Source of the DNA: a phage
DNA: 64,000 bases
Assembly (NCBI GenBank): GCA_033759635.1
Contig: GCA_033759635.1_4528.1
Direction: 5' to 3' (one strand)
Numbering within the stretch: the stretch's first letter is position 1; each line of letters starts with the position of its first letter. This document shows, piece after piece, positions 5,930 through 36,052 of the stretch. The position numbers were made by a program, and so were the translations under genes. The notes beneath the pieces are model-generated. The model made no database searches and was not told where the DNA came from. It worked only from the letters and a program-made list of their open reading frames with translations.

Positions 5930-6751
5930 ATGAGCATATTCCAAATTATATCTGAAGGCGTACAAGCCCCTAAGATTGCTCAGTCTATGAATGAAAGAAA
6001 ATGGATTGAGATAGGATTAGAATACAAGAAAGCTAAAGAGAAAGGAATCACTGCAAAAGCATTTGCAGAATCAAAAGGAATAAAATACTCGTCGTTTACA
6101 TCTGCAATGTCTAGATATGCATCATCTATTAAGACTGCACAGAAAATTGAAACGCTTGAATCTAAACCTAAAAATAAACTCAATAAGCAAGAACGTCAAC
6201 TTCTGATGATAAACTCGTTTCGCAGTTCAATACGAGAAAAGATTAGAAATGAAGGCGCAGCAGTAAACAACAAATCATCTAAGTGGTTTGTTGAAACAAT
6301 TAAGAAAAGTGTAAAAGGTCATAAAGTAGTCAAGCCTACGCCAGGCAAAATTTATACTTACGTGTATGATGCTAAACATAAAGATACTCTGCCGTATTGG
6401 GACAGATATCCTTTGATTATTTATTTAGGATTAGGTAAACATAATTTGATGTACGGGTTAAACTTGCACTATATCCCACCTAAAGCACGTCAACAGTTTC
6501 TTGAAGAATTGCTGAAGCAATACGCTAGCACAACTACTATTACTAATAACACAAAGTTGAAGATAGACTGGAGCAAGGTGAAAGGATTTCAAGGTGCTGA
6601 CAAAATGATTAAAGCATACCTGCCAGGCCACATTAGAGGAACAATAACAGAAATCGCTCCTAAAGACTGGGCTAACATAATCATGTTACCTACTCAGCAA
6701 TTTATGTCAAAAGGAAAACGTTTCTCTGCGAATACTGTTTGGAAATCTTAA
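5930..6751 (+). CDS. 2: DNA end protector protein gp2
   Basis: 273 aa (T4 gp2 is 274 aa); basic protein; synteny 4-2-3-1. Confidence 0.7.
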
Positions 6752-6853
6752 TTCTATTCTCTTCCGTTCTTCTGATATTCTGTTGAACCGGATTAATGGA
6801 AGAGACCTAAAACCATTATACTGTATTTTTATTAAAGCGTTTTTGAGGTGCTT

Positions 6854-7438
6854 ATGACTCGTCCAACGAGACAGATTTTTAACCAAACAAATATAACAAA
6901 CTTTGTTGTGGATATCCCAGATAGTACACGAACTTCAGGTTTTGTGCTCAATGCCCAAACGGCACCATTGCCAGGTGTGAGAATTCCTGTTGTTGAAACT
7001 GTGACAGGCACAATGGGGCTAGGGCGTGCAATGCGTGCAGGCACAACATTTGAATATGACCCTTTTATTGTACGATTTATAGTTGATGAAGACATGACGT
7101 CCTGGATGAACATGTATAAATGGATGCTCAGCACTAATAACTATATAACCGGACATAATACGGCCCATGCTGATGGTCCTGAGTTTGTTACTTTGCACAT
7201 TTTAAACAACAATAAGACTGAAGTCGTTTTGACGGCAAATTTCTATAAACCATGGATTTCCGATTTGAGCGAAATTGAATTTAGTTACACTGAAGATTCT
7301 GATCCTGCCGTTACGTGCGTAGCAACTATTCATTACGCGTATATGACGATAGAAAAAGACGGTGAAGTCATTGTATCTCAACAACCACGTCAGGCTGCCG
7401 AATCTAAATCCATTTCTAGACACCCTTCCTTGCGTTAA
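6854..7438 (+). CDS. 3: tail completion and sheath stabiliser protein gp3
   Basis: ORF 6848..7438 with ATG at 6854 after GAGGTG (MTRPTRQIF...); synteny. Confidence 0.65.
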   Translation: MTRPTRQIFNQTNITNFVVDIPDSTRTSGFVLNAQTAPLPGVRIPVVETVTGTMGLGRAMRAGTTFEYDPFIVRFIVDEDMTSWMNMYKWMLSTNNYITGHNTAHADGPEFVTLHILNNNKTEVVLTANFYKPWISDLSEIEFSYTEDSDPAVTCVATIHYAYMTIEKDGEVIVSQQPRQAAESKSISRHPSLR

Positions 7439-8994: not shown

Positions 8995-9282
8995 ATGAAA
9001 ACCTATAAAGAATTTATATCACCTGTTGCTAACGTTTCTACTCTGACCGAAGCATCCCTTACTTCTGAAGTTATTAAAACAAATAAAGGACGTGAGGGTA
9101 AACCAATGATTAGTCTGGTTGACGGTGAAGAAGTAAAAGGTACTGTTTACTTAGGGGACGGATGGTCTGCTAAGAAAGATGGCGCTACTATTGTTATCTC
9201 TCCGGCTGAAGAGACTGCACTGTTTAAAGCTAAGCACATTTCTGTAGCTCAGCTTAAAATTATTGCAAAAACTCTTCTGTAA
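8995..9282 (+). CDS. internal-protein-like head protein with capsid targeting sequence
   Basis: N-terminus MKTYKEFIS resembles the T4 internal-protein targeting sequence MKTYQEFIAE; 95 aa; sits where T4 ipI lies. Confidence 0.6.
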   Translation: MKTYKEFISPVANVSTLTEASLTSEVIKTNKGREGKPMISLVDGEEVKGTVYLGDGWSAKKDGATIVISPAEETALFKAKHISVAQLKIIAKTLL

Positions 9283-9285
9283 GTA

Positions 9286-9323
9286 GTTTACATGCCGATA
9301 GGACTATGTTATAGTAGTCCTAT
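9286..9323 (+). promoter_or_regulatory. early promoter cassette with stem-loop (PeSL-type)
   Basis: GTTTAC then ATAGGACTA-tgTTATAGT-TAGTCCTAT: 9-bp inverted repeat bracketing an extended -10. Confidence 0.55.
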
Positions 9324-9353
9324 CAAAACAAAATGAGTAAATGGAGAAATAAA

Positions 9354-9539
9354 ATGAAACGCGCTGAACTGATTCGTAATGTTGCTGTAGTAATTGCTTC
9401 AATGGCTTTTAGCTTTTCGATGTTTGTAGGATTCATTTGTGGACTACTGACAACAACAGAAAATTCTATCTCATTGGTAGTAGCATTTCTAATCGGCTTA
9501 ATCGCTATCGTTATGGATAAAATTGCAAAAGGTGAGTAA
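9354..9539 (+). CDS. small membrane protein
   Basis: ORF 9333..9539; second ATG has a GGAG RBS; one long hydrophobic stretch. Confidence 0.5.
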   Translation: MKRAELIRNVAVVIASMAFSFSMFVGFICGLLTTTENSISLVVAFLIGLIAIVMDKIAKGE

Positions 9540-11619: not shown

Positions 11620-11648
11620 AGCCCCTTCCGAAAGGTTGGGGCTTTTTT
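11620..11648 (+). terminator. rho-independent terminator (repeated cassette, copy 1)
   Basis: AGCCCC-ttccgaaaggtt-GGGGCT followed by TTTTTT. Confidence 0.7.
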
Positions 11649-11692
11649 GCATAATAATAAATAGATAAGTTAATTAACTTAGGAAAAGTAAC

Positions 11693-12162: not shown

Positions 12163-12190
12163 AGCCCCTTCCTTACGGTTGGGGCTTTTT
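12163..12190 (+). terminator. rho-independent terminator (repeated cassette, copy 2)
   Basis: AGCCCC-ttccttacggtt-GGGGC + TTTTT; near-identical to copies at 11620 and 27026. Confidence 0.7.
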
Positions 12191-12223
12191 GGCATCTAGG
12201 GCATAAAAATATTTCATAAAGAT

Positions 12224-12586: not shown

Positions 12587-12655
12587 AAATAATGATGTAC
12601 AAGCACCAAGGATGGTGATACTATAGACTTATCAACTACAGTGGAGTAAACAAAA

Positions 12656-12819
12656 TGACTACTTTAATTATTTGGTTCGATGAAAATGAAGAAACATACT
12701 GTGTGAATATTGGTGAAAGCCCAATGCCTGAATTTGAATCCTCAGATAAAAACTCTGTTGTATCTTGGGCCGAAGGTTATAAAGCAGCTAAAGGTGATGT
12801 TGAAATAATTTACATCTAA
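12656..12819 (+). CDS. small hypothetical protein (54 aa)
   Basis: Hand-translated MTTLIIWFDENEETYCVNIGESPMPEF...; GGAG RBS; preceded by a promoter-like cassette; below the ORF-track size cutoff. Confidence 0.4.
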
Positions 12820-12866
12820 GTAAGTTTATGTTATAGTAATCACATCAAATCAAGAGGAGAAACAAA

Positions 12867-15704: not shown

Positions 15705-15902
15705 ATGTCTCGTGAATTAGATTGTGCTGTACGTACGGCAGTAGCTGCTCTGGAAAACCTGTTCCAAATTGCAACAGAAGAACGCGAAGAAGTTACATTA
15801 TGGATTGAAGATAACGCAGGTCTGAATCTCCAGGACGCGATCTCATTATCCCACAATAGTATCACTGTTCAAGGCTGGGTATCATCTAGTTATTCTTGCT
15901 AA
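15705..15902 (+). CDS. hypothetical protein, WVSSSxxC-tail family (copy 3)
   Basis: 65 aa ending QGWVSSSYSC. Confidence 0.5.
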   Translation: MSRELDCAVRTAVAALENLFQIATEEREEVTLWIEDNAGLNLQDAISLSHNSITVQGWVSSSYSC

Positions 15903-15906
15903 AACA

Positions 15907-15944
15907 GTTTACAACAAGATAGGGCTATGTTATAGTAGTCCTAT
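15907..15944 (+). promoter_or_regulatory. early promoter cassette with stem-loop (PeSL-type)
   Basis: GTTTAC + ATAGGGCTA-tgTTATAGT-TAGTCCTAT. Confidence 0.55.
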
Positions 15945-15952
15945 CAAATTAA

Positions 15953-16204
15953 ATGGAGACAACAATGGTTTATTACGAAAGTATCGGAACCGAAGTAGTT
16001 GCTAAAACTATTACTCGTGAAAAGTTTGCAAAGATATTCGATATGCGTTATAAAAAATCTGAACACAAAGGCATCCGATTCGAAGATGCGCACTGTACAA
16101 TTTGCCCTTATAATGAAGACATAAACGGCACAATCGTTCCATTGGTAGAGGCTTCACATGACGACCTCTGGGATGAATATAATATCGCATGTCGCGAAAT
16201 TTAA
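15953..16204 (+). CDS. hypothetical protein
   Basis: 83-aa ORF following a promoter cassette. Confidence 0.5.
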   Translation: METTMVYYESIGTEVVAKTITREKFAKIFDMRYKKSEHKGIRFEDAHCTICPYNEDINGTIVPLVEASHDDLWDEYNIACREI

Positions 16205-17186: not shown

Positions 17187-17198
17187 TTTCGCAAAACT

Positions 17199-17236
17199 GT
17201 TTACACAATTATAGGACTATGTTATAGTAGTCCTAT
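17199..17236 (+). promoter_or_regulatory. early promoter cassette with stem-loop (PeSL-type)
   Basis: GTTTAC + ATAGGACTA-tgTTATAGT-TAGTCCTAT (same cassette as at 9286). Confidence 0.55.
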
Positions 17237-17256
17237 TAAAACATGAGGAGAATATT

Positions 17257-17562
17257 ATGAAATTAGGCGAAACCAACCGAATTGGTCTTTTAACTATATT
17301 TGTATCACTTTTTTACGTAGCTCTTTCTGTTGCAGTATTACAAAAGGCTTACGATATGGATGGTGTTCCTGGTTTTGTATTCTTATCACCATTTTTATTA
17401 TTCGTCGGGGCTTTGTTATTATATGCCACGACTAGTTTTGACCATAACGTCTGGGTTAATTATAAATGTAAATTGTCTGAAGAAGAACACGCAGAAGCTC
17501 GTAAAAAAACTATTGAATCTACCAATCTAGAAAATTTCATTAAAGAATGTCGAGGAAAATAA
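17257..17562 (+). CDS. small membrane protein, ENFIKECR-tail family (copy 2)
   Basis: Two TM segments; C-terminus ...LENFIKECRGK. Confidence 0.55.
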   Translation: MKLGETNRIGLLTIFVSLFYVALSVAVLQKAYDMDGVPGFVFLSPFLLFVGALLLYATTSFDHNVWVNYKCKLSEEEHAEARKKTIESTNLENFIKECRGK

Positions 17563-27025: not shown

Positions 27026-27053
27026 AGCCCCTTCCTTATGGTTGGGGCTTTTT
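27026..27053 (+). terminator. rho-independent terminator (repeated cassette, copy 3)
   Basis: AGCCCC-ttccttatggtt-GGGGCT + TTTT, followed by ggcatcta as in copy 2. Confidence 0.7.
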
Positions 27054-27064
27054 GGCATCTATCA

Positions 27065-27307: not shown

Positions 27308-27514
27308 ATGCTTTACGATTATACTGGAAAATCTGAAGACGGTGTGCTTGAACTTTTACCTGAAAGCGCTGAAGATGATGATATGGTGGCAATGTTTTGT
27401 AAAAATGGTCCTGGGGATAAGGGATGGATTTATCTTCGCCAAGAAAATGACCTAATTGTTTTAGACCCAAAACAAGTTGAAGAACTTTATCAACATTTAA
27501 AACACAATCGGTAG
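27308..27514 (+). CDS. hypothetical protein
   Basis: ORF 27281..27514 trimmed to MLYDYTGKSE... with GAGGA RBS. Confidence 0.45.
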   Translation: MLYDYTGKSEDGVLELLPESAEDDDMVAMFCKNGPGDKGWIYLRQENDLIVLDPKQVEELYQHLKHNR

Positions 27515-27551
27515 TTTACATCTTGGTAGGACTATGTTATAGTAGTCCTAC
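27514..27551 (+). promoter_or_regulatory. early promoter cassette with stem-loop (PeSL-type)
   Basis: GTTTAC + GGTAGGACTA-tgTTATAG-TAGTCCTACC (10-bp arms). Confidence 0.55.
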
Positions 27552-27572
27552 CAAAACAAACGGAGAACAAAA

Positions 27573-27683
27573 TGAAACTTTTGCTTATCGCTTATGTTGT
27601 AGTACAATACAATTATCCGATGTTTACTTATAACATGGTAAACGGCATAGTGAATCTTATTGAAACGAGTATGGTAAAATGAC
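27573..27683 (+). CDS. very small hydrophobic ORF (36 aa)
   Basis: MKLLLIAYVVVQYNYPMF...; GGAG RBS directly after the promoter cassette; below track cutoff. Confidence 0.3.
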
Positions 27684-30185: not shown

Positions 30186-30255
30186 TTGTTTACTTTTGCT
30201 TTAAACATGTTATTATAGACCTATCGAAACGAAATGAGTAAATTTGGAGAATAAA

Positions 30256-31236
30256 ATGTTCAACGTTCAGATCAAAAAAGGTATCTATCGTAATAACGAA
30301 ATCTCTGGTTCTTATGTTGCCACAAAGACATGGTTCCCGGCAAAGCTTAATCCTGAATGTTCCCACTTAGGTGACGGTAAAATTTTCGTTATGATTGATG
30401 GTTCTGAACGTGGAGTATGGGTCTTCAAATCAGACATCGTAATGGAAGGAGTTGAGACATCACCAGTTGCAGTTGTTGAAAGCACTGAAGATATGAAAAC
30501 TCGTATCAACAAACGCTTTAAAGTAATGAACATGATGACGAATGGCATTATTGATGGCAAAATTCGTTCACTCATTATTTCAGGTGCAGCTGGTATTGGT
30601 AAGACGTATTCTCTGGATAAAGCACTTAATAATGCTAATGATAACGGTTTCATCAAATACAAAAGCATTAATGGTAAAATCTCTGGTATTGGCCTTTACG
30701 AACAACTTTGGCTCAACCGTGATGAAGACAGCGTTCTCTTAATCGATGACGTTGACGTATTCTCAGATATGGACATCCTGAACCTTCTTAAAGCAGCATT
30801 AGATACCGGAGATAAACGCAAAGTTTGTTGGAGCACTGCGTCATCTTATCTCGAGGATAAGGGTATTGATAAAGAATTTGAGTTTGAAGGTACTATCGTT
30901 TTCATTACAAACGTTGATATCGATAAAGAGTTAGAACGGGGTTCGAAACTTGCTCCACACCTTCAAGCTTTAGTATCTCGTTCAGTGTATCTCGACCTTG
31001 GAGTACACTCTAATGAAGAGATTATGGTTCGAGTTGAAGATGTAATATTATCTACTGACATGATGCAGAAACGTGGTCTGACGGATGCAGAAACGTATAA
31101 AGCATTGTCCTGGATGAAGGCTAACGTATCTCGTCTTCGCAATGTATCATTACGTACGGCTCTTTATGTAGCAGATTTTATTTCAACTGATAAAGATGGT
31201 TGGGAAGAAATCTCGGAAGTTACTTTACTGAAATAA
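30256..31236 (+). CDS. P-loop ATPase (AAA-like)
   Basis: Walker A GAAGIGKT and Walker B LLIDDVD; 326 aa. Confidence 0.55.
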   Translation: MFNVQIKKGIYRNNEISGSYVATKTWFPAKLNPECSHLGDGKIFVMIDGSERGVWVFKSDIVMEGVETSPVAVVESTEDMKTRINKRFKVMNMMTNGIIDGKIRSLIISGAAGIGKTYSLDKALNNANDNGFIKYKSINGKISGIGLYEQLWLNRDEDSVLLIDDVDVFSDMDILNLLKAALDTGDKRKVCWSTASSYLEDKGIDKEFEFEGTIVFITNVDIDKELERGSKLAPHLQALVSRSVYLDLGVHSNEEIMVRVEDVILSTDMMQKRGLTDAETYKALSWMKANVSRLRNVSLRTALYVADFISTDKDGWEEISEVTLLK

Positions 31237-31374
31237 GCTTATAGGAAGTTCTGAGGTAACAAAAGCCATAAAGATGAATAATCATATGGCTTACCTCAAA
31301 GAAGGACACCAGGAACCTACTGAGGGCATAGAAATATTTAAAAATAATGATGTACAAATCAAAGAGGATATGTT

Positions 31375-32248: not shown

Positions 32249-32310
32249 ACGCTTTACCCAAGGACGGGTTATAATGGTTTTGAGTTCCAATTCAATCTGA
32301 GGAAATAGTT

Positions 32311-33306
32311 ATGAGCATTACATCTGATGCGGTAAAACATGAAATTAACGGTTTATGTGCTTCACAGATTAAAGTGTGGTTTAAAGACCATAACGATCGC
32401 AGAGCACTTAATTATGAGCAAATTGCTATCCAAGTTCATCAATTACTGACTAGTAAATTTGATTTTCATATGCCGCCTGAAATCTATACTAATCTGCCGC
32501 GAGCACTTATTAAAGCGTGTAAAGGTTATGGAAAATCAATGGCTGATGGAATCTTCAGCGCGCTGAATAAACTTAACGTTCTGTCGATGATTAACTCTAA
32601 CAATATCCTGCGTAATCTAGGACGTACTGATTTGTTCGGTCGTGAACAGTGTAAAATGCCTTTGAAATGGATTGTTGCTCATCTTAACGAGAACCAAACA
32701 CGTTTTATGGCCGTAACAGCACGTTTACAAATGGGCCTAGATCGTCAGATGAACTTTAAAACTCATCCACGTTATTCAGGTTCAACAGACTTTTATAAAT
32801 GCGAGCTTCAAAAGGTCGCTGGCAAAACTGTCTTAGTAGTTCGTGTAACGTTTGAAGGACGACGTCAAGGATATTTTGACCTAATCGGCTCTGGTCTTAA
32901 ACATTGTGGATTTATCGACGAAGTTGATATCAAGCGAGACGGCATTGGATACCGTATTGGGTATGTTTGTACTCTTAAAGAAGAGATTTCAGGACCAGCT
33001 CCAGGACTAAAAGACGTTAGATATAAAGACGAGCTCGTTGAAGAAATAAAAGAAGTTGAATATGATATCAACCAAGAAGATGCTCTTAAAGACCTTATTG
33101 ATGAACTGAACCAAGATGTTATTCCTGTTCAGAAATTTGAATCAAAACATGCTGAGCAAATCAAATACTTTGAAGCTTTGATTAACGAACTTAATGTAAC
33201 TATTCAACAGACTGACGATGAAATCTCACGATTAGCAGGCTTAAATGGTAAAAATAAAACAGAACGAGCTAATCTTATTCAAGTAGTAAAACTTCTTAAG
33301 GAATGA
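32311..33306 (+). CDS. hypothetical protein with C-terminal coiled coil (331 aa)
   Basis: Globular N-terminal region plus about 70-aa heptad-rich C-terminus. Confidence 0.5.
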   Translation: MSITSDAVKHEINGLCASQIKVWFKDHNDRRALNYEQIAIQVHQLLTSKFDFHMPPEIYTNLPRALIKACKGYGKSMADGIFSALNKLNVLSMINSNNILRNLGRTDLFGREQCKMPLKWIVAHLNENQTRFMAVTARLQMGLDRQMNFKTHPRYSGSTDFYKCELQKVAGKTVLVVRVTFEGRRQGYFDLIGSGLKHCGFIDEVDIKRDGIGYRIGYVCTLKEEISGPAPGLKDVRYKDELVEEIKEVEYDINQEDALKDLIDELNQDVIPVQKFESKHAEQIKYFEALINELNVTIQQTDDEISRLAGLNGKNKTERANLIQVVKLLKE

Positions 33307-33335
33307 TGTACAACCAAGGATGGTTGGAGTATAAT
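33307..33335 (+). promoter_or_regulatory. early promoter cassette with stem-loop (PeSL-type)
   Basis: TGTACA + CAACCA-agga-TGGTTG hairpin + GAGTATAAT; near-identical copy at 34326. Confidence 0.55.
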
Positions 33336-33361
33336 AAATTTTTCAACATGAGGAATATAAA

Positions 33362-34321
33362 ATGGCTTTTATTACACGTAGAGAACTTATCAAAGAATTT
33401 ACCTCGAACGCATATACTCCAGGACCTAATCCTATCCGTATGCCTGTAAAAACTCCTGAAGAGATTGAGGAAGTCTGTTCGTATTATGGGATTACTTCTC
33501 GTATGTTTACTCAATTTGAATGTGTTACTAACACGCCCGTTAAAGAGTTCATTAAAAATGGTGAGTTCAGCCGTTTACTAGCCAAACAGAAACTTCGTAA
33601 TTTTTGTATTGGCGGTGAAGGACAATATTTCGCTAAGCAGTTCCGGAATAACCTTAACAATCTGATGGCCATTGCTTCTCGTATTCGTCCTCAAGCAATT
33701 AACATGAAACATTTGAAATATACTTACGATAAGTTGGAAATCATGGTTATCAGTGAGAACGAGTTCACTCTCACGTATAAACCTAAGAACGATAACGTTG
33801 CTCGTGTATTCCACCAAGCGTTAGAAGTTTTAGGTGATAATATCCACCAGATTAAAGCAATTTATTCTCGTGAGCTTAATATTATCGACCCTATCAAGAA
33901 TAAGGGCCATATCGCTATCCAGGCTCGTGTATCTATTGGTAAAAAGGTTCCTGCGCCATGGTGGCACAAAGACTCTGAATACTATCAAAATCTTAAAAAG
34001 GAAAATGCAACGTTCGAAGGCAATATCACAGCAACACCAGTCGGTAATGCAGAGGTTCTAAGCGCATATTCTCCGACACAACCCGGTATGTTTAAAGGTT
34101 TGCCAAATGTGTGCAAACTGTCGGCAGTAAAACTAAATGTTTCTAATGACCTTCTTCCGGCCGAAGATTATCATTACAACCAAATCAAGGCTACTGTAGA
34201 CCAACTGTCCGTTGAACTTGACAAAGCACAAGCTAAGCTTCGTGATGCTCAAAGTGTTGTAACGAATCTCCAGTTGCAGTACTCTAAACTTTTTAACGCA
34301 ATGAATGCGTTAAAATCATAA
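33362..34321 (+). CDS. hypothetical protein with C-terminal coiled coil (319 aa)
   Basis: Same architecture as neighbours; C-terminus ATVDQLSVELDKAQAKLRDAQSVVTNLQLQY. Confidence 0.5.
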   Translation: MAFITRRELIKEFTSNAYTPGPNPIRMPVKTPEEIEEVCSYYGITSRMFTQFECVTNTPVKEFIKNGEFSRLLAKQKLRNFCIGGEGQYFAKQFRNNLNNLMAIASRIRPQAINMKHLKYTYDKLEIMVISENEFTLTYKPKNDNVARVFHQALEVLGDNIHQIKAIYSRELNIIDPIKNKGHIAIQARVSIGKKVPAPWWHKDSEYYQNLKKENATFEGNITATPVGNAEVLSAYSPTQPGMFKGLPNVCKLSAVKLNVSNDLLPAEDYHYNQIKATVDQLSVELDKAQAKLRDAQSVVTNLQLQYSKLFNAMNALKS

Positions 34322-34325
34322 AACG

Positions 34326-34355
34326 GTTTACAACCAAGGATGGTTGGAGTATAAT
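34326..34355 (+). promoter_or_regulatory. early promoter cassette with stem-loop (PeSL-type)
   Basis: GTTTAC + CAACCA-agga-TGGTTG + GAGTATAAT. Confidence 0.55.
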
Positions 34356-34383
34356 GAATCTATCTTAACGAGAGGAAAATATT

Positions 34384-35334
34384 ATGACACGTTCACATTA
34401 CATTGAATACTTTGCCGGTCTTATCGCTAACGTTCATGCCCAGCGTGCTGTTGGTGCACTAGGATTTGATGTTCCACACCGAGATGTAGTAAGTGGTATT
34501 CTTCGCGATTTTGGTACATACACAGGTCAAGAAAATCATATCTGTAAAGATACTCAGAATGCGTATTCTCATTCATTAGGGACACTGCTTCAATGGTTCA
34601 AACGTTCTCGTTTATTATCTTCTACTGTAGCTCGCGATAACATTAAAAACTTTATGAAACCGAGCTTTATTAAATCTGTGACATCTAAAACTGATTTGGT
34701 TGAATTCACTATTATTAATGATGTTAAAAAGACTCATTTGGCTGATTGGTTATCTACCATTCCTGAAACTAAATTCGCTGATAAATTTGCTTGTGAATTC
34801 AATAACCAAGTGAATATGCTTTTTAAACATTCTCGTAAATTATTCACGGGCGGTGATGGTCGTACAAATAAAGTTCATGTTAAAGATTGGGTTACTGCAG
34901 TATTCAAACCGACCGGTAATGGTAACGCATCATTATCAATTGATATCCAGGTTCCTTATTACTACTCACGTAATCTCGGTACCATGAAAGCTGAAGAAAT
35001 TAATAAGCATAACAAAACCGTTCGTTCATTGTCTTATAAACTTATTACATTGTTAGAGACTATGGATGTTGTTGAAACGTTCGACGAATCCGAAGATAAC
35101 GGTTCAATGTTATACAGTTCTCGCACCCGAATTAAGCTGAAGAACCCTAACGAGTATAAACTTAAGACTATTAAAGAACCTAAAGTAGAAAAAGTTGACA
35201 ACTTGAGCGAAGAACGTGAATATCTCAAATCTCGTCTGAAAGAAGTCGAAGCCCAGATTAAAGAACAGACTAAATCGTTAAAAGCTCTGAATGCGAAAGC
35301 GGACGGTTTACGAAATGCCATTGAGGTGTTATAA
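34384..35334 (+). CDS. hypothetical protein with C-terminal coiled coil (316 aa)
   Basis: C-terminus EEREYLKSRLKEVEAQIKEQTKSLKALNAKADGLRNAIEVL. Confidence 0.5.
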   Translation: MTRSHYIEYFAGLIANVHAQRAVGALGFDVPHRDVVSGILRDFGTYTGQENHICKDTQNAYSHSLGTLLQWFKRSRLLSSTVARDNIKNFMKPSFIKSVTSKTDLVEFTIINDVKKTHLADWLSTIPETKFADKFACEFNNQVNMLFKHSRKLFTGGDGRTNKVHVKDWVTAVFKPTGNGNASLSIDIQVPYYYSRNLGTMKAEEINKHNKTVRSLSYKLITLLETMDVVETFDESEDNGSMLYSSRTRIKLKNPNEYKLKTIKEPKVEKVDNLSEEREYLKSRLKEVEAQIKEQTKSLKALNAKADGLRNAIEVL

Positions 35335-35639
35335 TGAAACTACGTCTTTTAGAGGATATTGATATGAGCACTAATCATGGCTTGGTTAAGTTTATTGACG
35401 ATAGTTCAAAGATTGAATTTGTTCAGCGAGATAAAATCCACGGTGAAGAAGAGTTCGTTCCTCCAGCATGGAACGAAATAATGAAAATGGTTGAACGACG
35501 TGAAAATGCTGCCAAATCAGCAGCAAAACATCCATGCCCGAAATGTGGAACTATCCAAGTCCAACTGGTTAACTGGACCACTGATAACTTGAAATTGAAA
35601 TGCCGTAAATGCTTCCACAAATTTGAGAGAATATTATAA
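35334..35639 (+). CDS. zinc-ribbon protein
   Basis: CPKCG...CRKC C-terminal Cys4 pair; 101 aa. Confidence 0.5.
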   Translation: MKLRLLEDIDMSTNHGLVKFIDDSSKIEFVQRDKIHGEEEFVPPAWNEIMKMVERRENAAKSAAKHPCPKCGTIQVQLVNWTTDNLKLKCRKCFHKFERIL

Positions 35640-36052
35640 TGAGATATAGCCTTCGTTGTTTTATCGCAGCTTTAGTTTTTGCCATTATTCCATTCATTTG
35701 GAACAGTCAGAATACTTACATGGAAACTAAAGTAATTCCTGTGGAGGTAGTGGAATTAATCTCAGGCCAATCTACAGGAAAATATTCTAAATTAGAATTT
35801 ATTGCAGTCTATAAAGATGAGCAAGGACGAGTTTTTGACAGGCGTGTATCACCGTCGTTTTATACGCTTCTGAATAAAGGTGATACGATAGCTATAGAAA
35901 TTCGTGAGATGGATATCAAACAAACTACTAAAGATAACTTGATTTGGTTCTTTGGTACAGTGTTGTTGGTTTCTATCTGTATCACAGGTTTTATTACATG
36001 TATTGTATTTGGCATTGCATATTTAATCGATGAAAGGAAAAATAATGTTTAA
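35639..36052 (+). CDS. membrane protein
   Basis: N- and C-terminal TM segments; 137 aa. Confidence 0.5.
   Translation: MRYSLRCFIAALVFAIIPFIWNSQNTYMETKVIPVEVVELISGQSTGKYSKLEFIAVYKDEQGRVFDRRVSPSFYTLLNKGDTIAIEIREMDIKQTTKDNLIWFFGTVLLVSICITGFITCIVFGIAYLIDERKNNV

Follow-up and report, generated by a model that had tools for sequence, protein, structure and literature searches.

T4 NrdC.5 counteracts Dsr1, a SIR2 NADase (Srikant, Guegler and Laub 2022, PMC9391042): a T4 clone without nrdC.5 failed to plate on E. coli with the Dsr1 sirtuin defence, and plating was restored by nrdC.5 on a plasmid (PMC9391042). A second described system are the intergenic promoter-stem-loop elements of early (PeSL) or middle (PmSL) type, which comprise a stop codon, a stem-loop, a sigma-70 early or Mot-box promoter, a Shine-Dalgarno sequence and an ATG (PMC2839356, PMC4122927). 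Here, both are compared with a locus on contig GCA_033759635.1_4528.1 (NCBI GenBank assembly GCA_033759635.1), a stretch of 64,000 nucleotides of phage DNA that is called the window in the following and in which three consecutive genes (A, B and C) occupy positions 32311-35334. They are read as the RB69-type nrdC.6, nrdC.5 and nrdC.3, forming one paralog family of early/middle counter-defence binders behind PeSL-like promoter cassettes, an interpretation which we regard as probable, though well short of certain.

The T4 ORFs (open reading frames), the Pfam DUF families, the action of NrdC.5 against Dsr1, the promoter PnrdC.7 and the PeSLs are already published, and the modest new point is the unification of the nrdC.3-.6 superfamily. 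To our knowledge, the literature searched states neither that nrdC.3, nrdC.4, nrdC.5 and nrdC.6 are one superfamily with a conserved terminal helix nor that these promoters contain a covarying hairpin.

Identity of the three genes

Judged by its sequence, the window originates from an RB69-like (Mosigvirus) T4-type phage. The nucleotide identity to the phages CCU7 and Shf125875 is 99%, and many RB69-like (Mosigvirus) coliphages match the region at 97-99% identity. Synteny and sequence place the neighbourhood in the hyperplastic region that extends in T4 from nrdC.11 to gene 49. The three genes span exactly 32311-35334, a range that begins with the ATG of A and ends with the stop codon of C; all are located on the plus strand, each behind a GAGGA-type Shine-Dalgarno sequence:

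32311..33306, plus strand: gene A, 331 amino acids, ortholog of T4 nrdC.6, PHROG 2257
33362..34321, plus strand: gene B, 319 amino acids, ortholog of T4 nrdC.5, Pfam DUF7235 (PF23882)
34384..35334, plus strand: gene C, 316 amino acids, ortholog of T4 nrdC.3 and paralog of T4 nrdC.4

In BLASTP, gene A showed 30% identity to T4 NrdC.6 (E 6e-18). It matches PHROG 2257 with an E value of 3e-127, its homologs carry PF26899 in the precomputed Pfam annotation, and its position downstream of nrdC.8 is conserved in synteny across relatives, which assigns it to the NrdC.6 family. Homologs of gene A were detected by tblastn in 742 phage records, T-even-type without exception. Gene B belongs to PF23882, whose profile it covers completely (positions 1-307 of 307, E 9e-121, 403 bits at a cut-off of 30), and has 25% identity to T4 NrdC.5 (BLASTP, E 1e-11). 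Gene C showed 57% identity to T4 NrdC.3 (BLASTP, E 2e-118) and is a member of the NrdC.3/NrdC.4 family (PF26897 / PHROG 1435; E 7e-102 to the PHROG); its stop codon and the ATG of the nrdC.2 homolog overlap.

The order and orientation of the array between nrdC.8 and nrdC.2 are the same as in T4. T4 nrdC.4, which is of similar size and sits between T4 nrdC.5 and nrdC.3, is absent from the window. While the flanking nrdC.8 and nrdC.10 share 78-83% identity with T4, the values for A, B and C are 25-57% (BLASTP), indicating that the array evolves much faster than its surroundings. As a separate observation, nrdC.6 of the T4 reference (NC_000866) is frameshifted compared to other Tequatroviruses: the annotated product of 275 amino acids has an unrelated tail, and the conserved C-terminal helix (...ELNISIQQYDDEIFRLSGLSSKAKSEREKLIKIVDLLKS, then stop) is encoded in another frame just before nrdC.5.

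Relationship of the three families

An original prediction, made from the sequence of the window, had described three adjacent ORFs of 316-331 amino acids without mutual similarity, and pairwise BLASTP confirmed this for A, B and C with best E values of 0.18, 4.5 and 3.6. It had also proposed a remote homology search, and at the level of profiles the three proteins are indeed linked as paralogs. Together with T4 nrdC.4, they most probably constitute one paralog superfamily that is deeply diverged and occurs in T4-like phages only.

The profiles compared by hhalign contained 16-25 non-identical members per family. The families of nrdC.3 and nrdC.4 are linked already by BLAST, and reached 1e-15 in reciprocal hmmsearch and a probability of 98% in hhalign. 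For the B family versus the C family, hhalign determined a probability of 91% (P 1e-6, 157 columns, score 53.7), and for the A family versus a joint profile of B and C 69.5% (P 4e-5, 206 columns, score 41.7); the link of A is hence weaker than that between B and C. A column-shuffled null (n=60) gave scores of 14.5+/-2.0 for B versus C and 13.3+/-1.9 for A versus B and C, with a maximum of 19-23, and reversed profiles scored 16-19. The observed scores lie 15-20 standard deviations over the column-shuffled nulls, and the profile homology among all nrdC.3-.6 families exceeds the compositional null. The profile of nrdC.8, used as a negative control, scored within the null range. The same result led to the rejection of nrdC.8 as a short member of the family, a possibility that had come from a Foldseek match to a protein of 175 amino acids.

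An exhaustive search of 1.8 billion representative proteins with a hidden Markov model of the C family returned seven matches only, which include an NrdC.5 of T4 type (E 5.7e-9) and a protein of NrdC.4 type (5.8e-6). Since there were no more than seven matches, the family is narrow. Word-index homolog searches with A, B and C returned close relatives only.

Karamvirus, Jiaodavirus, Gelderlandvirus and Lazarusvirus carry a single gene of 324-362 amino acids in the same slot. The gene of Karamvirus matches the A profile, those of Jiaodavirus and Gelderlandvirus match the joint profile of B and C, and the genes of Karamvirus and Jiaodavirus match each other with P 1e-4. By these matches, the single-copy genes of Karamvirus, Jiaodavirus and Gelderlandvirus appear to bridge the A and B/C families. 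Moreover, the hhalign alignments are co-linear through two motif helices (LSxxxAxxxLxNF ... FRxNxxxLxAxAxRL), and an extreme C-terminal motif LxxA(I/L)xxLK is common to all families. The motif helices read as follows:

Gene A: LNKLNVLSMINSNNILRNL ... NQTRFMAVTARL
Gene B: FSRLLAKQKLRNF ... FRNNLNNLMAIASRI
Gene C: RSRLLSSTVARDNIKNF ... FNNQVNMLFKHSRKL

Altogether, the paralogs are older than the split of the T-even genera. That A, B and C resemble each other in architecture is explained by their being very old paralogs.

Architecture of the proteins

Structures were predicted with AlphaFold2 for A, from an alignment of 5 sequences, and for C, from 31 sequences; a joint MAFFT alignment of B and C misplaced the SRLLS motif and was not used for structure prediction. 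The mean predicted local distance difference test (pLDDT) was 51.5 for A and 55.4 for C, which denotes low confidence. The models of A and C, obtained independently, agree in the order of their elements, namely N-terminal helices, a beta-hairpin, a helix, a further beta element, a disordered linker and a C-terminal helix, and the beta-hairpins coincide with the columns aligned by hhalign. The linker of 20-40 residues (219-255 in A, 253-274 in C) is hypervariable. The C-terminal helix was modelled as a single helix in C (275-315, pLDDT 66-80) and as a broken one in A (256-330). The common plan suggested by the models consists of an N-terminal helical region with the two motif helices, a small beta-hairpin/helix/beta unit, a linker and a C-terminal amphipathic heptad helix. 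The globular region of about 250 amino acids stated in the original prediction therefore holds at the level of secondary structure only, as the models are of low confidence.

The same prediction had assigned to each protein a C-terminal coiled coil of 60-70 amino acids. A heptad score exceeded 100 shuffles at residues 281-310 of A, 267-319 of B and 267-316 of C, and besides these in one internal helix of C only. By this score, A, B and C each have a helix free of proline in which the hydrophobic a/d periodicity persists for 4 heptads or more, so that the putative C-terminal coiled coil was found again in all three, with a length of about 30-55 instead of 60-70 residues:

33076..33303, plus strand: C-terminal helical region of A, residues 256-330, heptad-significant at 281-310, ending in ...ERANLIQVVKLLKE
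34160..34318, plus strand: C-terminal heptad helix of B, residues 267-319, ending in ...YSKLFNAMNALKS
35182..35331, plus strand: C-terminal heptad helix of C, residues 267-316, ending in ...ADGLRNAIEVL

Sequence and profile searches of the PDB gave no match, the same holds true for NCBIfam, and Pfam returned a DUF for B only. A Foldseek search of the PDB with the models yielded nothing significant (best E 2.4e-3, TM-score 0.21). Against viral models, the matches of A and C were uncharacterised proteins of about 300-370 amino acids from T4-like phages, with E5EYP0 common to both and TM-scores of 0.2-0.4 for these low-confidence models. The alignment of B and C contains 9 invariant columns only, none of a typical catalytic type, and invariant polar residues are almost absent across the families.

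Promoter cassettes and the embedded hairpin

The 25-mer CAACCAAGGATGGTTGGAGTATAAT occurs exactly twice in the window, at 33311 and 34331, with 0 expected in shuffles, which verifies the identical cassettes claimed for two of the genes. The repeat between the cassettes of B and C extends to 43 nucleotides with 86% identity. A promoter cassette was also expected for each gene; all three indeed have one, of which that of A differs, being a MotA-type middle promoter:

33302..33344, plus strand: cassette of gene B, with -35 TGTACA at 33307-33312, a 17-nucleotide spacer, GGAG and -10 TATAAT at 33330-33335
33311-33326, plus strand: hairpin of gene B, CAACCA-agga-TGGTTG, in the spacer and in the minimum-free-energy fold
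34322..34364, plus strand: cassette of gene C, with -35 TTTACA at 34327-34332, the hairpin as in B at 34331-34346 and -10 TATAAT at 34350-34355
32250..32275, plus strand: cassette of gene A, with the MotA-box-like CGCTTTA at 32250-32256, N13 and -10 TATAAT at 32270-32275
32256-32269, plus strand: hairpin of gene A, ACCC-aaggac-GGGT, related to that of B and C

With 10 of 12 matches to the sigma-70 consensus for B and 11 of 12 for C, the latter being the best in the 29-39 kb that were scanned, the cassettes of B and C are assigned as near-consensus sigma-70 early promoters. They fit the T4/PST early-promoter consensus TTTACW-N17-TAYWAT (PMC4122927). The cassette of A has the described spacing of 12+/-1 bp between a MotA box and the -10 (PMC2988021). 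Its T4 counterpart, GCTTTA-taccaaggatgg-TATAAT, lies upstream of T4 nrdC.7, and PnrdC.7 (start site 53325) is listed among the identified MotA/AsiA-dependent middle promoters of T4 (PMC2988021). The cassette of A is thus classified, by its sequence, as the ortholog of this mapped promoter. In T4, nrdC.7 is situated between nrdC.8 and nrdC.6; in the window, a membrane-protein homolog of nrdC.7 (41% identity) was found at 35639-36052, after nrdC.2 and just before nrdC, which is a local gene transposition relative to T4. Due to this move of the nrdC.7-like gene downstream, the PnrdC.7-type promoter now drives A directly.

A hairpin of the type CCA-AGGA-TGG precedes the -10 directly in all three promoters. 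Hairpins of the same type occur upstream of T4 nrdC.7, nrdC.4 and nrdC.3, and in other genera upstream of nrdC.4-like genes. The AGGA loop and the CCA/TGG core are fixed, and the changes in the outer stem are compensatory. Across 11 distinct cassettes, 89% of the cells were paired, with double changes in 4 of 6 pairs, compared to at most 41% in slid controls. The following stems were observed:

CAACCA/TGGTTG; CATCCA/TGGATG; AGCCA/TGGCT
CTTCCA/TGGAGG; TGCCACA/TGTGGTA; TTATACCA/TGGTATAA

A role of the hairpin as an intrinsic terminator is unsupported, as it comprises no U-tract and was not called by the terminator scan. A RegB site was considered as well, but GGAGUAUAAUA fits GGAGRAYARAA in part only, and this idea is speculative.

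Several further elements of this kind were observed in the window. More than 15 early-promoter cassettes share 40-86 nucleotides (GTTTAC...TGTTATAGTAGTCCTATCAAAAC...GGAG...ATG), for example at 9276-9371, 12798-12860, 15897-15992, 17189-17284 and 27504-27599. In many of them, a 10-bp inverted repeat (GATAGGACTA ... TAGTCCTATC) brackets the -10, and promoter-embedded hairpins seem to be general in this phage, beyond the CCA-AGGA-TGG type. The 12-mer AATGATGTACAA, which combines stop codons with a TGTACA -35-like hexamer, is present at the intergenic positions 31346-31357, 12591-12602 and 33302-33313, a number of sites that hardly exceeds chance. At 31346 it is directly followed by a Shine-Dalgarno sequence and the ATG of the nrdC.9 homolog, without a -10 box, and this site resembles the 'half PeSL' remnants of Comeau et al. 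In addition, an element that resembles an intrinsic terminator, with a GC-rich hairpin ahead of a T-run (AGCCCCTTCC...GGTTGGGGCTTTTT), was found three times (11620-11655, 12163-12198 and 27026-27061), in two of the three cases directly upstream of an early-promoter cassette.

Variability of the locus

That the three genes occupy one slot with variable content was borne out by the comparison of T4-like phages, in which between 1 and 4 members occur in the slot and some of these genes are pseudogenised or deleted. The nrdC.4 gene is broken into fragments in phage a48 and an IMG/VR relative, the last 45 codons are all that phage Pinarejo retains of nrdC.6, and Dhakavirus and Yersinia P8-type phages lack nrdC.3. 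The cassette of type GGAGTATAAT is located before the nrdC.3-type gene in the window and before the nrdC.4-type gene in the Yersinia P8 and Dhakavirus phages. A direct repeat of 65 nucleotides (95% identical), which consists of the last 22 nucleotides of B and the cassette, flanks gene B in phage moha. Such repeats in hyperplastic regions, at indel and replacement junctions between related phages, are what characterises PeSLs and PmSLs. The cassettes would supply 40-65 nucleotides of homology at gene boundaries, by which members of the array could be lost, gained or swapped.

Copies were also found outside the slot. A related genome contains a third exact copy after dexA, and the window itself holds a diverged variant at 12604:

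12591..12633, plus strand: third, diverged cassette copy, AATGATGTACAAG-CACCA-agga-TGGTG-ATACTATAG, downstream of an ORF of 101 amino acids

As shown by these two copies, the cassettes are general regulatory modules of hyperplastic regions and not specific to this slot. The cassette-driven diversification put forward in the original prediction could not be upheld, since the T-even genera split later than the paralogs arose.

Between the nrdC.6-type and nrdC.5-type genes of the moha, Yersinia P8 and Dhakavirus phages, an ORF of 66-71 amino acids was observed that is hydrophobic with two transmembrane-like segments (6975-7175 in the moha locus, 6671-6886 and 6672-6872 in the other two). It is absent from the window, and the end point of the deletion adjoins the cassette of gene B. 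In moha, P8 and UGJNEcP3, the small intergenic ORF that separates A from B was tried as a remnant paralog and rejected, because it encodes a hydrophobic membrane peptide.

It is conceivable, though on balance doubtful, that the identical cassettes go back to a recent local event, either duplication or gene conversion, which copied an ordinary early promoter, and that the hairpin is a by-product without a role in recombination or RNA biology. The early promoters of the window share 40-60 nucleotides of near-identical sequence, the stability of the hairpin is unexceptional and the sharing of AATGATGTACAA is hardly above chance, all of which fits this explanation. A by-product would not be expected to covary in its stem across cassettes of different genes and genera around a fixed loop and CCA/TGG core, nor to be present in both early-type and MotA-type promoters. 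Furthermore, the position of the cassettes at indel and replacement junctions, the 65-nucleotide repeat around B in moha and the mini-circles between such cassettes that were demonstrated in RB49 and phi1 (PMC2839356) speak against this explanation.

Function and alternative explanations

Three observations suggest that A, B and C act as binders without enzymatic activity: T4 NrdC.5 neutralises Dsr1, almost no polar residues are invariant, and the genes are dispensable and fast evolving. The T4 orthologs of the array are non-essential and can be deleted (PMC9391042). In the proposed mechanism, the proteins would be made in the first minutes of infection, A from the PnrdC.7 ortholog (MotA/AsiA-dependent, middle) and B and C from sigma-70 early promoters, and each would neutralise a different host immune protein. 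The C-terminal helix is probably used for oligomerisation or for docking to a common partner, and the variable parts probably for target specificity.

Several points weigh against this interpretation. The link of A to B and C consists of profile statistics (69.5% probability) and low-confidence models, and with a pLDDT of 51-55 the models do not demonstrate the same fold in three dimensions; the coiled coil was called with a home-made heptad score. The functional datum was obtained for T4 NrdC.5 alone and would have to be carried over to A, to C and to the B of the window. Gene B and the T4 protein that was tested share no more than 25% identity, so that B may have another specificity and may even differ in its anti-Dsr1 activity. 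The thermodynamic stability of the hairpins is unremarkable (z -1.6 to +1.1), and as they also comprise no U-tract, a terminator function of the PeSL type is doubtful here. In the classical PeSL, the stem-loop lies upstream of the -35 and terminates transcription (PMC2839356); in the cassettes of A, B and C, the stem-loop is located within the spacer between -35 and -10, where it adjoins the -10 or overlaps with it.

Among the alternatives that concern the proteins themselves, it is unlikely that A, B and C are paralogs which serve the takeover of the host or the physiology of the phage, for example by acting on the nucleoid, on transcription, on nucleotide metabolism or on the membrane, with the anti-Dsr1 effect of T4 NrdC.5 as a special case or an indirect consequence. 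Such a role would agree with the functional data for one member only, with the location of the genes among those of nucleotide metabolism (nrdC, nrdD, tk) and with the maintenance of the family in many T4-like genera at one fixed genome position. It agrees poorly with genes that are dispensable, repeatedly pseudogenised or deleted and present in 1 to 4 copies, and with an array that diverges far faster than its flanking genes. Proven counter-defence genes are close by as well. The nearby gene pin encodes a Lon inhibitor. Gp49.2, the product of another nearby gene, inhibits OLD (PMC13096335). Dispensability, fast divergence, variable copy number and counter-defence neighbours are together typical of arms-race genes.

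A more far-reaching version of the counter-defence interpretation, equally unlikely in this full form, takes nrdC.3-.6 as a modular counter-defence platform with a constant scaffold, fast-evolving recognition parts and integron-like gene exchange via the hairpin cassettes. The scaffold would comprise the two motif helices and the terminal LxxA(I/L)xxLK coiled-coil helix, which would oligomerise or dock to a common partner. Each paralog would disable a different host immune sensor, SIR2/NADase-type sensors among them, and the hairpin cassettes would be the linker sites for exchange between co-infecting phages.

We consider it quite improbable that A, B and C are unrelated proteins which converged on their length and a C-terminal amphipathic helix and have independent functions. 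The missing pairwise BLAST similarity, the three separate PHROGs and Pfam families, the ease with which coiled-coil-like tails yield spurious similarity and the low confidence of the structure models could be taken in this sense. The profile matches, however, cover 157-206 columns, among them those of the N-terminal region, which is not coiled, and exceed the nulls by 15-20 standard deviations, with the nrdC.8 control in the null range. Moreover, nrdC.3 and nrdC.5 are linked in the library-wide search, intermediate sequences bridge the families, and the motifs are co-linear with the same order of secondary structure. A role as structural or virion-associated proteins, for which the original prediction had proposed virion proteomics as a check, is extremely improbable for A, B and C: fibrous and scaffold proteins often have a long C-terminal helix, but the genes lie in the early nrdC-49 hyperplastic region behind sigma-70 early and MotA middle promoters, their T4 orthologs are non-essential and deletable (PMC9391042), and nothing similar to a structural protein was detected in Pfam, PHROGs or the PDB.

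If the interpretation as a family of counter-defence binders is true, the proven anti-Dsr1 protein is the entry to a family with 1-4 copies in most T4-like phages, of which family A alone is found in more than 700 GenBank phage records. The other members would be candidate inhibitors of other bacterial immune systems, and part of the host-range differences among therapeutic T4-like phages would be explained. The conserved C-terminal helix is a concrete handle for pull-downs and truncations, and the covarying hairpin within early and middle promoters that are otherwise ordinary adds a small, testable point to what is described for PeSLs. The current understanding is not overturned by this, as publications on the genes, on one function and on the concept of the cassettes already exist.

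Neighbouring genes

The nrdC.10 homolog at 30244-31236 of the window is a P-loop/AAA-type ATPase with weak Pfam matches to STAND/AAA_22. In contrast to the narrow family of A, B and C, it is kept at 37-82% identity well outside the T-even phages, in Vibrio, Xanthomonas and jumbo Klebsiella/Erwinia phages. In many GenBank records (e.g. ATK47), every nrdC.x gene, including A, B, C and the nrdC.10 ATPase, is labelled 'thioredoxin'. For the array genes, this identity was rejected, as Pfam gives no thioredoxin domain and the label is carried over from the gene names. Likewise, T4 49.2 is labelled 'ribonucleotide reductase' in GenBank, a name propagated from gene symbols with no domain match behind it, and nrdC.8 was treated as a nucleotide reductase in a 2026 paper.

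Comparison with known systems

Compared to T4 NrdC.5, gene B belongs to the same Pfam family over its full length, has the same genome position in the early region and carries the same C-terminal helix motif (...SKL(F/N)NA(M/L)NAL). The two differ in their upstream regions: gene B is preceded by an early promoter of its own, while T4 nrdC.5 comes directly after nrdC.6 without a cassette in between. With respect to T4 NrdC.3, NrdC.4 and NrdC.6, the window lacks nrdC.4, and nrdC.6 of the T4 reference lacks an in-frame C-terminal helix.

Like PeSLs and PmSLs, the cassettes of A, B and C hold a promoter between an upstream stop codon and the Shine-Dalgarno sequence and ATG, and are repeated at junctions. 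Their stem differs from that of the PeSL by a length of 4-8 bp, a fixed AGGA loop and the lack of a U-tract. With the T-even anti-defence islands (dmd-tifA-adfA; pin and 49.2 against OLD), several members of which counter specific host defences, the locus shares small non-essential early genes and a variable content. While those islands are composed of unrelated genes, the genes described here form a tandem paralog array which most probably derives from one family.

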